Shown here piece by piece: positions 43,986 through 48,567 of a stretch of DNA of 64,000 nucleotides. Positions within the stretch are counted from its first letter, which is position 1, and each line of letters opens with the position of its first letter. The notes under the pieces are model-generated. The model made no database searches. It saw only the letters and a list, made by a program, of their open reading frames with translations, and was not told the origin of the DNA. Origin of the DNA: Spirochaetia bacterium (lineage in GTDB: Bacteria > Spirochaetota > Spirochaetia > UBA9216); NCBI GenBank assembly GCA_963675665.1, contig OY776510.1:4320001-4384000 (forward strand), given 5' to 3'. A program made the position numbers and the translations under genes.

Positions 43986-44963
43986 ATGAACAAAGTACTT
44001 AGAGGCGCCAAAAAGATTCTGATTGCTATATCGATTCCGTGCATCCTTTTCATTCTGATTATGATAATTGTGCCTGAAAGAATTGGATTTCATGTACTGC
44101 CCAGTCTATTGCAGCAGGCTATCATTCCTGCAATACTTGCTCTCGGCGTCTGTTTCGAGATAAAGGTGGGCGTTTGGGATTTTTCCATAGGCGCAAACGT
44201 TATGGTGGCCGGAATAATCGGCGGAAATCTGTCCATGATGTTCGGGCTTGGTATTCCCGGGATGATTATAATATGCACGCTCACCGGGCTGATAATCGGC
44301 ACGCTTACCGGAGCGGTTTATACAGTATTAAAAGTTCCTTCGTTAATCGTATCAATTGGTATGATGCTGGTTCTTGAGAGTATAAGCGCTATCATTTTCA
44401 ACGGTCAGGGCGCCAACATGTCGAAGGAATTCCTGGCGGTGGGTGAATTCCCCATTAACCTGATTGTGGGCATAGCGGCATTTGTAATTGCCTATTATTT
44501 TTATAACGTCAGGAAATTCGGATACCAGCTTCGGGCTACGGGAAACGGGATAGCCGAGGCAAAGCTTAACGGAATAAATGTACATGTTGTCAGGCTGCTT
44601 GCATTCTCCACAGCCGGACTTCTGGCTGGCATCTATTCATTTATGACATTGGGAAGTTCAGGCGTTGTAAGAATTGTAACAAACATGGGCAGCATGGGAG
44701 TGGTTTTCGGCGCCATTATGTGCGTATTGATTGCTTTCGCTATCGAAAAATCCGTTAATCTTATTGTCGGAATCGTTATAGGCAGTATTACTGTTCAGAT
44801 AATCAAAATCGGAATACTGACCATAGGATTGCCGAGCGCTTTTCAACAGGTAATCATCGTAATACTGTTGCTGATATTCCTGGCAATTAATACAAAGGTT
44901 GATGATTTTAAAGGCATGATGAGAAGGTTTAAACGAAAACAGGAATTAAGCAGGCAGGCGTGA
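43986..44963 (+). CDS. Sugar ABC transporter permease
   Basis: WDFSIGA, KVPSLIVSIG, ATGNG...NGIN; highly hydrophobic. Confidence 0.9.
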   Translation: MNKVLRGAKKILIAISIPCILFILIMIIVPERIGFHVLPSLLQQAIIPAILALGVCFEIKVGVWDFSIGANVMVAGIIGGNLSMMFGLGIPGMIIICTLTGLIIGTLTGAVYTVLKVPSLIVSIGMMLVLESISAIIFNGQGANMSKEFLAVGEFPINLIVGIAAFVIAYYFYNVRKFGYQLRATGNGIAEAKLNGINVHVVRLLAFSTAGLLAGIYSFMTLGSSGVVRIVTNMGSMGVVFGAIMCVLIAFAIEKSVNLIVGIVIGSITVQIIKIGILTIGLPSAFQQVIIVILLLIFLAINTKVDDFKGMMRRFKRKQELSRQA

Positions 44964-45014
44964 AATCAAAATCCTGAATTTTTATTGATGCTTTAATACA
45001 TAAGGAAATAGATT

Positions 45015-46127
45015 ATGAGTTTTTTGGGAACCTCAATGAGGGATATATACCGGGAAAGAAAAGGCCGCAGAATGCGGGAATCAAGTTACGACAGATCCGG
45101 AGGCAACGCGGACTTTTATCTGATAAAACCTGTGTCCAAAGCTACTGTCTTCGATGCGGCTTCAACGGGATGCATTACGCATATCTGGGTTACAATCGGA
45201 GTGCCGGGCGGGAATCCCGTATGGGGAGCTTTTATGATGGAGCGAAAGGTTGTCATAAGAATGTTCTGGGACAATGAAACATCTCCCTCGGTTGAAGCCC
45301 CGATAGGCGACTTTTTTGGAATGGGTCACGGTATTTCCAGAAACTTTGTCTCGGCTCCGCTGACCATGTGCCCTCAGGATGGAAAAGGTTACAACTGCTA
45401 TTTCCCGATGCCATATCAAAAAGGGGCAAGAATAGAAATAGAAAATGAATCGGAAAACTCTTTAATGTTCTATTTCTATATTGATTATGAACAATATGAA
45501 GAGCCCGTCGACAGCGACCTGCGTTTTCATGCCAGATGGAAAAGAGAAATAACAAAGGGTATTGATGACAAGACAATGTCGGGAGTACAGTACCAGATGG
45601 GCGGCCGGAATCTGGATGGAGCAGCAAACTATGTAATTATGGAAGCCGAAGGTAAAGGGCATTATGTCGGATGCAATATGAATATCCACAACCTCCGTTA
45701 TACAAACCAGTTTAACTGGCCCGGAGAAGGAGACGACATGATATTCATCGACGGAGAACCCTGGCCTCCAAGACTTCATGGTACCGGAACGGAAGATTAC
45801 TTTAACACTGCTTATTGTCCCCAGCAGGAATTCAATACGCCTTACAGCGGCATAATTCTTCCGGGCGGACCGAACTGGAGCGGGAAAATTACATATTACA
45901 GGTACCACATCCAGGATCCGATAATGTTCGATAAATCAATAAAGGTGACAATTGAACATGGACATAACAATCACAGGTCAGATGACTATTCATCAACAGC
46001 CTATTGGTATCAGACCGAACCTCACATGAAATATGAACCAATAATACCGGCAGACAAAAGGTTGCCGCTTGACGATATAGTATTCGACTCTAACGAATTA
46101 GCCGATGTTTTGGGTTTGAAGGAATAA
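45015..46127 (+). CDS. Glycoside hydrolase family 172 (DUF2961)
   Basis: SSYDRSGGNAD, PSVEAPIGDFFG, WPGEGDD, GTGTEDYF, DPIMF, SSTAYWYQ. Confidence 0.9.
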   Translation: MSFLGTSMRDIYRERKGRRMRESSYDRSGGNADFYLIKPVSKATVFDAASTGCITHIWVTIGVPGGNPVWGAFMMERKVVIRMFWDNETSPSVEAPIGDFFGMGHGISRNFVSAPLTMCPQDGKGYNCYFPMPYQKGARIEIENESENSLMFYFYIDYEQYEEPVDSDLRFHARWKREITKGIDDKTMSGVQYQMGGRNLDGAANYVIMEAEGKGHYVGCNMNIHNLRYTNQFNWPGEGDDMIFIDGEPWPPRLHGTGTEDYFNTAYCPQQEFNTPYSGIILPGGPNWSGKITYYRYHIQDPIMFDKSIKVTIEHGHNNHRSDDYSSTAYWYQTEPHMKYEPIIPADKRLPLDDIVFDSNELADVLGLKE

Positions 46128-46154
46128 ACGCTCATTTAATGATTAAAATAAATC

Positions 46155-46535
46155 TTAATGGCCCCGCTTCCTGCGCTTCTTTTTCTGCCGGTTCAGCTGA
46201 TATCGTTCATCAGCTCTGATTCTGTGTGTTTCGGATTTCTGCTTTTTTAATAATTTCATCTGTTGTTCAAGTGCAGCCTTGTAAACAGCCTGCGATTTAT
46301 TCCCCATTCTTTTCTCTTCTTTCGGAGAATACTGCCGTTTCAGTCTGAAATCATGAGAACCTTTCAGGAACCGCAGGTTATCATAATCCGTTAAATAAAA
46401 CCGGAGCAATTCGGCATTTCCCGGTTCGGGTCCGAATACATATCTTGCCGTCATTATTGAATCTGAGGAAATTTTTTCTACAAGCGCAATCCAGAACTGT
46501 CCGTCATACATGACAGTTGTTTTTACCGTTTCCAT
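46155..46535 (-). CDS. yjdF: YjdF family protein (DUF2992)
   Basis: TVMYDGQFWIALVE, YVFGPEP, KSQAVYK, and basic C-terminus KKKRRKRGH. Confidence 0.9.
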   Translation of the reverse strand: METVKTTVMYDGQFWIALVEKISSDSIMTARYVFGPEPGNAELLRFYLTDYDNLRFLKGSHDFRLKRQYSPKEEKRMGNKSQAVYKAALEQQMKLLKKQKSETHRIRADERYQLNRQKKKRRKRGH

Positions 46536-46561
46536 ATAAGCCTCCGAACGTAACTATACGG

Positions 46562-46670
46562 AGGCAAAAACGGACATCTGGCGTGATGGATACTGAATCT
46601 ATAAGTCCGGGTTTTTCCCGAAACCTTCGATCGCCCGGACTACCTGCGGGGCCGTGTTTTTTCTTTGCCT
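46562..46670 (-). ncRNA. yjdF (azaaromatic) riboswitch, variant form
   Basis: In the 5' UTR of yjdF: closing stem AGGCAAA/TTTGCCT and conserved blocks AAAAACAC, GGTAGTCCGG, TCAGTA and GATGTCC in the expected order. An anti-SD hairpin follows. Confidence 0.82.
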
Positions 46671-46692
46671 GAAATTAGAGTTATATAAAATA

Positions 46693-46716
46693 TGAATAAA
46701 AACCGGTTTTTATTCA
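46693..46716. repeat. Perfect 24-bp palindrome TGAATAAAAACCGGTTTTTATTCA (terminator, REP-like or operator)
   Basis: 15 bp downstream of the AOR stop and upstream of the riboswitch. Confidence 0.6.
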
Positions 46717-46731
46717 AGGGGCCACGGTCTT

Positions 46732-48567
46732 CTACGCAACGACTTCTTCAAGCCCAAGTTCTTTAATCTTGTCCGCAGAAACAAGTCCGTTTTCATTCCA
46801 GCCGCGGAATCTGTAGTAATCCTCAAGCATCGTACCGAAAGGCGGCAGCTCATTGGTTCCGCCGCCGCGGCGGTGAGTCAGTATTCTTTCAGGCAGGGTA
46901 TCATCCTTGCGCGAAAGTCCGATCCGCTGGTTGTAAAGGCGTTTCAGATTGAAAATACGTTCGCCTGTTTTAAGAAATTCTTCAACGGTCATACTCCACC
47001 CGGTAGAGGCATTCATATAATCAAGTGTGTGCTGAACCATCAGGCCGCCGTAACGGGCGAATTTGCATATGCAGAGGGAATCAAACAGGCACGACCAGTC
47101 CTGCATGCGCGCAACTATTGCCGCTTTCTTTGGTGAAAATCGGCCTTCCGACGCTTCTACACCCAGGTTTTCTACGTACGCTTCTTCATAATCCTGGGTA
47201 AAAGACAGATGACATGCTCCCCGGTTTGAAGTGGCGTATGCAAGCGCAAGAGAGAAATTCGCCCTCGGATCATGAGCCGGTAATTCAAGGCCTTTAACCT
47301 GCTGTGTGAAGGCTTCAGCTTCAGGACCTATCTTTTGTGAAAAACTGCGTGCGCCGTCGGCCATCATCTCACCGAGTTTTCCCTCGCGCCTGCACATCTT
47401 CTCAAGCGCCTGCAGAGCCGCCGCGCCGTTTCCGAAACAAAGTTCAATTCCATCCGTGTCGTCAAGCGTAAGAAGTCCCTTTTCAAACGATTCCATCGCA
47501 ACGGCAAGCGTGTTGCCTGCAGATATGGTATCTATACCGTAACGGTTGCATATTTCATTCTCTTTCAGAATAACATCATAATCATCTATAAGAAGGTTCG
47601 AACCCATAAGCCCCACGGTTTCGTATTCAGGCGCGGCAATCTGTTCGCCGTCGTAGGGCCCGCCCTTTGCCGTTCCCGTCTTTCCGCATGCTATCGGGCA
47701 TTTTCCACAGGCATAATTTCCGAGATTATGGGTTTTGATTGTCGTATAACCTTTAATCCTCTCTGCGCCTTCCGGCCAGTTTCCCTGATACCAGTTTTTT
47801 ATAGGCAGGTTTCCTACCTCTTCAAAGAAATCCAGGGCACATGTAGTTCCGGCTTCATGCATACCGGCAGCGTCCTCTTTCATTGATTTGTTAAGCGACT
47901 TGTTTATCTGCTTGACCCGGTCAGCATCCGCTATTTCGGGAACGGTATTCCCGGCTACAACAACAGCCTTCAGGTTTTTCGAACCCATTACCGCTCCGAG
48001 CCCGCAGCGTCCGGCCGCCCTGCCGTGTGCGCCGTCGGCGATTATTGCGGCCACCTTTATCAGGTTCTCCCCGGAGGGCCCGATACATGCAACCTCGCAG
48101 CCCTTTCCTTCGGCGACCTTCAGTTCGCGCTGGGTCATGAATGTATCTTTGCCCCAGTAAGTTCCGGCCGGTTTGATTGAGACTTCTTCGTCGCTGACTT
48201 TCAGGTAAACGGGGGCATCAGCCTTTCCGCGCACAATGATTGCATCATAACCGGTTTTCTTGAACCGGCTTCCCCATTTCCCGCCGCAGGAAGCCTCGCC
48301 GTAAATTCCGGATTGGGGCGATTTACCGACAATTTCAAAACGATCCGAATTAAACCCTGCAGTGGCCGATACTGGTCCGGTTGCCCAGATCATCACATTG
48401 TCCGGCCCCAGCGGATCGGTATCCGGACCGGTAAGATCATAAAGCATTTTAGCCCCGAATCCGCTGCCGCCTATCCAGGTCCTGGCAAATTCTTCAGTAA
48501 TATCAACTGTATCTACAGTTCCTTTCGTCAGGTCAATATCCAGATACTTTCCATGATAACCCTTCAT
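46732..48567 (-). CDS. aor: Aldehyde:ferredoxin oxidoreductase (tungstopterin AOR family)
   Basis: GRCGLGAVMGSKNLKAV, CGKCPIAC, PEYET, DTIS, HDPR, RGACH, DSLCICKF. Confidence 0.93.
   Translation of the reverse strand: MKGYHGKYLDIDLTKGTVDTVDITEEFARTWIGGSGFGAKMLYDLTGPDTDPLGPDNVMIWATGPVSATAGFNSDRFEIVGKSPQSGIYGEASCGGKWGSRFKKTGYDAIIVRGKADAPVYLKVSDEEVSIKPAGTYWGKDTFMTQRELKVAEGKGCEVACIGPSGENLIKVAAIIADGAHGRAAGRCGLGAVMGSKNLKAVVVAGNTVPEIADADRVKQINKSLNKSMKEDAAGMHEAGTTCALDFFEEVGNLPIKNWYQGNWPEGAERIKGYTTIKTHNLGNYACGKCPIACGKTGTAKGGPYDGEQIAAPEYETVGLMGSNLLIDDYDVILKENEICNRYGIDTISAGNTLAVAMESFEKGLLTLDDTDGIELCFGNGAAALQALEKMCRREGKLGEMMADGARSFSQKIGPEAEAFTQQVKGLELPAHDPRANFSLALAYATSNRGACHLSFTQDYEEAYVENLGVEASEGRFSPKKAAIVARMQDWSCLFDSLCICKFARYGGLMVQHTLDYMNASTGWSMTVEEFLKTGERIFNLKRLYNQRIGLSRKDDTLPERILTHRRGGGTNELPPFGTMLEDYYRFRGWNENGLVSADKIKELGLEEVVA

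Follow-up and report, generated by a model that had tools for sequence, protein, structure and literature searches.

The yjdF (azaaromatic) riboswitches, whose discovery and ligands have been described (PMC4793209), are explained by a model developed on the RNAs of B. subtilis and R. gauvreauii, in which loop L4 acts as an anti-ribosome-binding site (anti-RBS) and helix P4a as the transducer (PMC12641257, PMC10987639). In B. subtilis, exchanging L4 for GAAA made expression constitutive and the substitution U54A raised basal expression (PMC12641257), and a review classes the family under 'interdomain docking' (PMC10907184). Spradlin et al. 2025 (PMC12641257) concluded that these riboswitches are still orphans with regard to their natural ligand and that the conserved P4a pairs have no explained role. 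Here, we describe a yjdF riboswitch in a 64,000-nt stretch of a Spirochaetia bacterium genome (assembly GCA_963675665.1, contig OY776510.1, positions 4,320,001 to 4,384,000; hereafter the window), which lies on the minus strand in front of a yjdF gene. The analysis makes it probable that this family member controls yjdF translation in this genome as an ON switch based on a swap of helix P1, unlike the published L4 model, and that its enlarged P3 arm is a lineage-specific insertion.

A yjdF aptamer in front of its usual gene

A first-pass annotation, made from the letters of the window, had proposed a yjdF riboswitch at this locus and a covariance-model search as a check. Its sequence strings and coordinates all proved exact on the minus strand, and the search bore out the identity. 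The Rfam model RF01764 (azaaromatic/yjdF; gathering score 45) matched end to end over model positions 1–101 (cmscan, 46.5 bits, E 9e-6), and this match is both the sole Rfam hit in the window and the single RF01764 copy across the 5.15-Mb genome. An open reading frame (ORF) with the DUF2992 domain (PF11208) begins 18 nt past the 3′ end of the match, with its ATG at 46535–46533(−), placing the RNA in the 5′ leader of a yjdF gene. The element is thus a true member of the yjdF family, found before its usual gene (Table 1).

Reading the cmscan alignment against the numbering of the B. subtilis crystal structure, with nucleotide roles taken from PMC12641257, we recovered the four-stem junction with its conserved joining regions and L2. 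The window RNA agrees with the consensus at each of A8–A10, C12, A13, C14, G24, G25, U26, A27, G28, U29, G48, U49, A50, C52, C53, G70, U71, C72 and C73; its departures, none of them among these positions, are C22, A23, U51 and A54. The pocket (A10–U26, A27, U49), the pseudoknots PK1 (A13–U29, C14–G28) and PK2 (G24–C73, G25–C72) and P3b are all at consensus, J4/1 reads UGUCC, and the conserved pairs C52–U71 and C53–G70 are retained. P1 is a helix of 8–9 bp, AGGCAAAG(A)/(U)UUUUGCCU. The pyrimidine–pyrimidine pair 54–69 of P4a is absent: position 54 is a pyrimidine in 98% of the family and the pair is of this type in about 98% (PMC12641257), whereas the window and all 13 leaders of the set defined below carry A54–U69.

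RF01764 matches were found in 8 of 61 relatives searched and, in a class-wide sample of 151 genomes, in 11 (G000 is in both counts), the carriers in the class including Marispirochaeta and Sediminispirochaeta; a search at the order level returned the same 11 genomes as that at the family level. Li et al. 2016 (PMC4793209) had already named Spirochaetes as a phylum in which yjdF RNAs occur, and Sediminispirochaeta smaragdinae (CP002116.1/457714-457809) is one of the 507 sequences in the Rfam set used by Spradlin et al. 2025 (PMC12641257 supplement). The earlier idea of a variant in another phylum is therefore correct as to the spirochaetal host and fails as to the novelty of the phylum. All comparisons below use a subclass set of 13 leaders from spirochaetes, all different from one another: the window, G002, G004, G008, G009, G010, G018, G054, G101 (to which G078 is nearly identical), an Oceanispirochaeta metagenome-assembled genome, L066, L090 and L101. 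Rows left out of the comparisons were L037, L042 and L043 (motif pattern mismatch), L031 (no start codon found) and G264. Scans for the A54 and P4 patterns gave 22 false positives among 34 hits and 12 among 22, respectively, recognized by the lack of downstream yjdF motifs.

A conserved hairpin that overlaps P1 and buries the Shine–Dalgarno sequence

Beyond the aptamer core, the Shine–Dalgarno sequence (SD), which ends 5 nt upstream of the AUG, is held in a 7-bp hairpin, GCCUCCG/CGGAGGC (−13.3 kcal/mol; z −3.46, with no shuffle out of 200 reaching this stability). Four of its nucleotides, GCCU, are common to P1 and the sequestor, and removing the P1 strand weakened the hairpin from −13.2 to −3.2 kcal/mol. 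An SD helix overlapping the P1 3′ strand, such that the two helices are mutually exclusive, is present in the window and in 13 of 13 leaders. The SD partners are always positions 13–17 counted from UGUCC (11 and 13–15 in L066), which cover the final 2–3 nt of the P1 3′ strand and the bases that follow it, and SD and anti-SD change jointly (CCUCC/GGAGG; CCCCC/GGGGG in L090; CCCCU/AGGGG in L101). For the ten subclass tails folded from UGUCC to the AUG, z-scores ranged from −1.71 to −6.70, and eight of them were more stable than every one of 200 shuffles. The two-state expression platform suggested in the first pass thus has a real basis, a P1-overlapping hairpin that sequesters the SD and is kept throughout the related leaders. 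Its reading as an intrinsic terminator was ruled out, as there is no terminator-like site between 46100 and 46800 and no U-tract 3′ of the stem.

Whole-leader folds agreed with this arrangement. In all 13, the SD was paired at 4–5 of its 5 nt in the minimum free energy structure (MFE), and forcing P1 to form cost +2.5 to +5.6 kcal/mol and opened the SD, whose mean unpaired probability rose from 0.00–0.21 to 0.41–0.80. In the window, the MFE, which combines the sequestor with an arm/core helix discussed below, lies at −41.1 kcal/mol, compared with −37.3 for P2–P4 plus the sequestor and −35.3 for the full aptamer with P1; mean pair probabilities were 0.97 for the sequestor and 0.02 for P1. The cost of 2.5–5.6 kcal/mol for forcing P1 in the 13 leaders would be compatible with a ligand-dependent shift between the two helices.

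The complementarity of L4 to the RBS, on which the published model depends, has been lost in the subclass. The segments CCAUC...GAUGUCC are common to 13 of 13 leaders, so that A54 pairs with U69, and their L4 loops are short and free of CCUCC; in four of them L4 is a GNRA tetraloop (GCAA in G018, G054 and Oceanispirochaeta, GAAA in L101). The best L4:SD duplex of the window, GCC of the loop with GGC at the 3′ edge of the SD, has 3 bp and −5.5 kcal/mol. The window RNA therefore lacks an L4 anti-RBS, which belongs to the described mechanism and not to the definition of the aptamer. Pairing of L4 with the SD was −6.4 kcal/mol or weaker in 12 of the 13 leaders, the exception being L002 with a CCUUCCC loop (−11.8 kcal/mol). 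Median energies separate the subclass from 18 classical leaders in both directions: −2.8 versus −12.95 kcal/mol for the P4/L4:SD duplex, and −16.1 versus −7.25 kcal/mol for the duplex of the P1 3′ tail with the SD. With A54 and an L4 that is GNRA or otherwise devoid of an anti-RBS, these RNAs would be unregulated under the L4 model and must hence regulate through another element.

Some individual leaders deserve mention beside these averages. The GNRA loops of L007, L008, L014 and L101 are natural counterparts of the engineered L4(GAAA), which is constitutive in B. subtilis. Both platform types occur within the class Spirochaetia, because one of its leaders, L024 (G086:C14:34449-34555 and downstream), is classical, with U54 and an L4 (UCCCCCA) complementary to a GGGGG RBS; it has no significant post-P1 hairpin (z −0.24). 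An actinobacterial leader, L056 (Bifidobacterium subtile NZ_JGZR01000008.1), carries A54, and its L4, of the UUCG type, lacks an anti-RBS (−5.1 kcal/mol for L4:SD); pairing of GAGGAGG with the P1 3′ tail, CCCUUCUC, is possible at −11.3 kcal/mol. Judging by these letters, it may be an independent case of a P1-tail platform.

We propose a translational switch based on a helix swap. When no ligand is bound, GCCUCCG, composed of the final nucleotides of the P1 3′ strand and the bases next to them, would pair with CGGAGGC and bury the SD. Ligand binding would stabilize the aptamer core and hold P1 closed, since P1 directly adjoins both PK2, formed between L2 and J4/1, and the A-minor contacts made by J1/2. 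A closed P1 would retain the anti-SD segment and leave the ribosome-binding site free. Coupling between ligand and P1 is plausible in that C72 and C73 of J4/1, which form PK2 with L2, stand immediately 5′ of the P1 3′ strand. In the described RNA, A8 and A9 anchor P1 to PK2 and show ligand-dependent protection (PMC12641257).

Several observations weigh against this proposal. The RF01764 score exceeds the gathering score by just 1.5 bits, a narrow margin due to the divergence of P4 and the insertion in L3. Being kin, with several near-identical pairs among them, the 13 leaders are not independent, and the L4:SD value of L007 is unreliable because its start codon and SD region were mis-picked. 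When P1 was forced in the window, 3 of 5 SD bases were still weakly paired in the MFE. Complementarity between the P1 tail and the SD is also not unique to the subclass, since the pyrimidine-rich P1 3′ strands of the classical Clostridia leaders L029, L038 and L041 can pair with the SD. These three keep the CCUCC anti-RBS in L4 and have tail hairpins of −9.7 to −12.6 kcal/mol, so that the two elements might work side by side in some classical members.

Formal covariation must be counted on the same side. In a MAFFT alignment of 11 tails, 79.2% of the cells were paired against 77.3% in shuffles (reached by 63 of 500), with 7 against 4.0 double-sided cells (25 of 500), a covariation score of 0.264 against 0.246 (100 of 500) and slid partners 36–58% paired; RNAalifold on a MAFFT alignment gave 5 pairs only. 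As the MAFFT tail alignments were not structure-consistent, we added the per-sequence folds and a model-fitted alignment of 13 rows, which is biased towards the structure, and shuffle counts of this kind are not probabilities: paired cells were 78.6% against 75.5% (7 of 500), double-sided cells 10 against 5.6 (12 of 500), with double-sided changes at 5 of 16 pairs, the covariation score 0.284 against 0.241 (10 of 500), and slid partners 47–58% paired. The core sequestor pairs are the SD itself and hardly vary among leaders. The spirochaete leaders, which the first pass had suggested collecting for covariation, thus show the hairpin arrangement throughout, with modest formal support from the alignments.

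Two other explanations of the platform have to be considered. The classical mechanism could persist, with L4 or P4 pairing with the RBS in the apo state and the post-P1 hairpin being incidental. This is the mechanism that the yjdF literature describes, and both the GCC–GGC duplex of the window and the CCUUCCC loop of L002 would allow it, yet we consider it very improbable: besides the weak L4:SD pairing of the other 12 leaders and the four GNRA tetraloops, A54–U69 would stabilize P4a, a change that raises basal expression in B. subtilis (PMC12641257), and the post-P1 hairpin is conserved and far stabler than its shuffles. The hairpin might also be a constitutive attenuator or stabilizer uncoupled from the aptamer, the ligand acting instead through a tRNA-like fold that stimulates translation (Trachman et al. 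2022). The window itself is in keeping with this, as its helix has 7 bp only and shares just 4 nt with P1, which further tells against the swap. In most relatives, however, the sequestor spans the entire P1 3′ strand (8–9 nt), because the sequence past the SD copies the P1 5′ strand, and the narrow gap between the P1-forced and sequestor states in all 13 leaders is as expected for a tuned switch. Later crystal structures, moreover, did not support a tRNA elbow between L2 and L4 (PMC10987639). We therefore regard an uncoupled hairpin as improbable and retain the P1 swap.

The enlarged P3 arm and the ligand pocket

The P3 arm of the window measures 37 nt (16 nt in B. subtilis; Table S1, PMC12641257), with the insertion located in loop L3 (25 nt versus 4 in RF01764), and folds by itself at −10.4 kcal/mol. 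In the crystal structure, P3/L3 is solvent-facing, points away from the core and makes no contacts; L3 sequence and P3 length are strongly variable, and GAAA in place of L3 leaves binding unaffected (PMC12641257). Inserts of about 31 and 38 nt are present in 2 of 22 complete Rfam rows (part 21 of the alignment), and a 59-nt arm was found in L038, one of 14 leaders parsed from a Clostridia sample (RF01764 in 17 of 151 genomes, 15 leaders retrieved; L027 and L028 included). A new structural feature was ruled out on these grounds, the arm being a variable, dispensable element with comparable inserts in Rfam and Clostridia. The window arm is a lineage-specific insertion in P3/L3, real and of an ordinary kind. 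Its length had been read correctly in the first pass, which had also stated that long arms in the Rfam alignment would remove the novelty, as they do; the accompanying remark that the arm lacks a T-loop was misplaced, because the T-loop-like element of yjdF RNA is L2, not P3 (PMC12641257).

Among the 13 leaders, long arms are confined to the window and G002 (56 nt), the other 11 having no insertion. In G002 (L005/L013), from the genus of the window, the insertion is a 56-nt AT-rich hairpin of −14.8 kcal/mol, and G004, of the same genus, has an L3 of the normal 4 nt. Common ancestry of the two arms was ruled out by their unrelated sequences, which suggests repeated independent L3 insertions in the genus. 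A repeat or mobile element was likewise ruled out, as the window arm has one genomic copy with up to 3 mismatches allowed.

The second peculiarity lies in P2 and L2. P2 (GCCCCG/CCGGGC) has a C–C mismatch at its fifth pair, and L2 reads CAGGUAGU against the RF01764 consensus UUGGUAGU, with C22 and A23 where U22 and U23 are usual. In the family, a C–A–U triple with C at position 22 accounts for 4.5% and A23 for 26.6%, A23 normally correlating with an optional helix P2a (PMC12641257); P2a is absent from the window RNA despite A23. The L2 difference pointed out earlier is thus present, and both nucleotides are known minority states. C22 was accompanied by a Y20–C31 mismatch in P2 in 7 of 7 C22 leaders of the subclass and in 0 of 6 U22 leaders, a pattern that may go back to a single event because the seven are kin. 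An exact scan for the C22 pattern across 185,579 species genomes returned 14 stretches, of which 6 are true riboswitches, all spirochaete, and 8 are false, with no downstream yjdF motifs. A metagenome scan for C22-type leaders added only two hits, identical to each other, whose leader shares this L2 and mismatch but is otherwise of another build. These contigs (L044 and L045) combine the C22/A23 loop and the C–C mismatch with a long P4 (CCCCG...CGGGG) and a J4/1 of UCGUCC; their P1 3′ strand is complementary to the SD, GGAGAGA.

Both peculiarities could be given a functional meaning beyond the P1 swap. The first pass had seen in the arm a built-in anti-aptamer, and the 8-nt complement is exact, CCCGGACT at 46604–46611(−) facing AGTCCGGG at 46634–46641(−). 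The arm might then add a third state, in which a CCCGGACU–AGUCCGGG helix unfolds L2/P2, making the OFF state deeper or defining a kinetic window. This perfect helix is part of the unconstrained MFE, which is more stable than P2–P4 plus the sequestor. It forms with a mean pair probability of 0.41, against 0.44 for P2, and a complement of at least 8 nt arose in 126 of 5000 dinucleotide shuffles of the arm (P 0.025, in a post hoc test on one sequence). Conservation fails, however: the 56-nt arm of G002, the only other long-armed relative, has no complement to the core longer than 5 nt, and most of the subclass has no insertion at all. P2 also forms co-transcriptionally ahead of the 3′ strand of the arm, and L3 is dispensable in B. 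subtilis (PMC12641257). We take the predicted anti-aptamer for an unproven peculiarity of the window copy and a third state to be unlikely. A subclass with a different ligand specificity, marked by the C22/A23 loop and the Y–C mismatch, is less likely still. C22 replaces the U of the U22–A27–U49 triple at the pocket floor (PMC12641257), and its co-occurrence with the mismatch, the restriction of the exact pattern to spirochaete records as a true riboswitch and A23 without its usual companion P2a all speak for it. Nevertheless, C–A–U triples and A23 are known within the family, the remaining pocket and pseudoknot nucleotides are at consensus, the regulated gene is unchanged, U22 members of the subclass have the same platform, and ligands stack in the pocket, which makes few base-specific contacts (PMC12641257).

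Table 1. Coordinates of the yjdF leader, its structural elements and the gene downstream (positions are those of the window)
Feature	Position	Strand	Basis or remark
yjdF/azaaromatic riboswitch aptamer	46554..46673	−	RF01764 match, single genomic copy
P1 5′ strand, AGGCAAAG; ninth pair with A46662 possible	46663..46670	−	cmscan alignment; partner 46562–46569/70
J1/2, AAAAAACACG: A8/A9/A10 and C12, A13, C14 (PK1/P3b partners)	46653..46662	−	upper-case model consensus; roles PMC12641257
P2 hairpin and L2 CAGGUAGU (ligand-pocket T-loop-like loop)	46633..46652	−	cmscan alignment, 'v' mark
Enlarged P3 arm, 37 nt, inner CGGG-AAAAA-CCCG hairpin, insertion in L3	46596..46632	−	25-nt insertion versus 4 in model
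CCCGGACU in arm, perfect complement of AGUCCGGG (46634–46641, L2/P2 3′ side)	46604..46611	−	exact match; possible alternative helix
J3/4, CAGUAUCCA, C46–A54 in B. subtilis numbering	46587..46595	−	cmscan alignment
P4a/P4 hairpin: C52–U71, C53–G70, A54–U69, U–A, C–G; loop ACGCCA; no CCUCC anti-RBS	46574..46589	−	sequence
P1 3′ strand, UUUUUGCCU	46562..46570	−	cmscan alignment and folds
Anti-SD GCCUCCG, sequestor 5′ arm, overlaps last 4 nt of P1 3′ strand	46559..46565	−	sequence and folds
Sequestor 3′ arm CGGAGGC, holds SD GGAGG (46541–46545)	46540..46546	−	SD 5/5 paired in MFE, pair probability 0.97
yjdF gene, 126 aa, DUF2992, C-terminus Lys/Arg-rich	46155..46535	−	PF11208, E 4e-20, 72.7 bits

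Upstream of the riboswitch and on the same strand lies a gene for an aldehyde:ferredoxin oxidoreductase (AFOR). Its stop codon is separated from the aptamer by a 58-nt spacer, 46674–46731(−), with the palindrome AAAAACCGGTTTTT inside. A promoter scan gave no site of the sigma-70 type in the interval from the AFOR gene to the aptamer; by eye, the spacer offers one weak promoter-like candidate (TTGAAT...CATATT). On the other side, a gene for a DUF2961 protein, 45015–46127(+), is convergent with yjdF and is preceded by a gene for a branched-chain-type ABC permease, 43986–44963(+). No PadR gene adjoining yjdF was seen among the ORFs listed for 44500–48500.

Comparison with described riboswitches

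The aptamer family, its presence in Spirochaetes and the length of the arm are not new; it is the expression platform that seems to differ from the published model. A P1-swap platform that goes together with A54 and a lost L4 anti-RBS was found described nowhere in the portion of the yjdF literature covered (from PMC12641257, PMC4793209, PMC10987639, PMC9142559 and PMC10907184), and full-text searches for yjdF yielded nothing more specific.

Differing expression platforms within one riboswitch class are common. The surprise of a P1-swap platform is therefore moderate, and phylum and arm length add little by themselves. The lineage is of interest for another reason, as the subclass naturally carries two key mutations of the 2025 study: U54A, and the loss of the anti-RBS from L4, which in some members is a GNRA loop. 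With C52–U71 and C53–G70 still in place, it constitutes a natural comparative test between the P4a-transducer model and the 'direct contact' idea for the conserved P4a pairs put forward by Spradlin et al. 2025 (PMC12641257). If L4 no longer addresses the RBS, the conservation of these two pairs is not explicable by transduction between L4 and the RBS. Tentatively, and with considerably less confidence than we have in the P1 swap, the spirochaete yjdF RNAs could be viewed as a subclass of distinct function, with P1 having taken over the switching from L4/P4a, in which the kept pairs would point to direct recognition of the natural ligand and the C22/Y–C variant could tune sensing. A simple helix-swap platform should also suit reporter use better.

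Set against the yjdF RNAs of B. subtilis and R. gauvreauii (PMC12641257, PMC10987639), the window RNA has the same four-helix P1–P4 junction with C52–U71 and C53–G70, and the three share J1/2 AAAAACAC, L2 GGUAGU, J3/4 CAGUA-CC and J4/1 UGUCC. They are also alike in their place directly 5′ of a DUF2992 gene and in their translational ON logic, which is predicted here. The window differs by its longer P1 (8–9 bp versus 5–7 bp reported for the family), C22/A23 without P2a, the C–C mismatch in P2, the 37-nt P3, an L4 without anti-RBS, the Watson–Crick pair A54–U69 and the SD hairpin overlapping the P1 3′ strand.

The S. smaragdinae RNA, from the same phylum, resembles the window more closely, with CCAUCC..GGAUGUCC including A54 and with a P1 3′ strand followed by CUCUGGAG...CCGGAGG. 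Unlike the window, it has a P3 of normal length, U22 in place of C22, a P2 without mismatch and a longer sequestor (13 bp, −21.8 kcal/mol).

For the proposed platform itself, the closest parallels are translational helix-swap ON switches such as the add adenine riboswitch of Vibrio vulnificus, in which, in the apo state, part of the P1 3′ strand pairs near the SD or start codon. The aptamer fold and ligand of add are unrelated to those of the window RNA, but its ligand-stabilized P1 frees the ribosome-binding site, as is predicted for the window.

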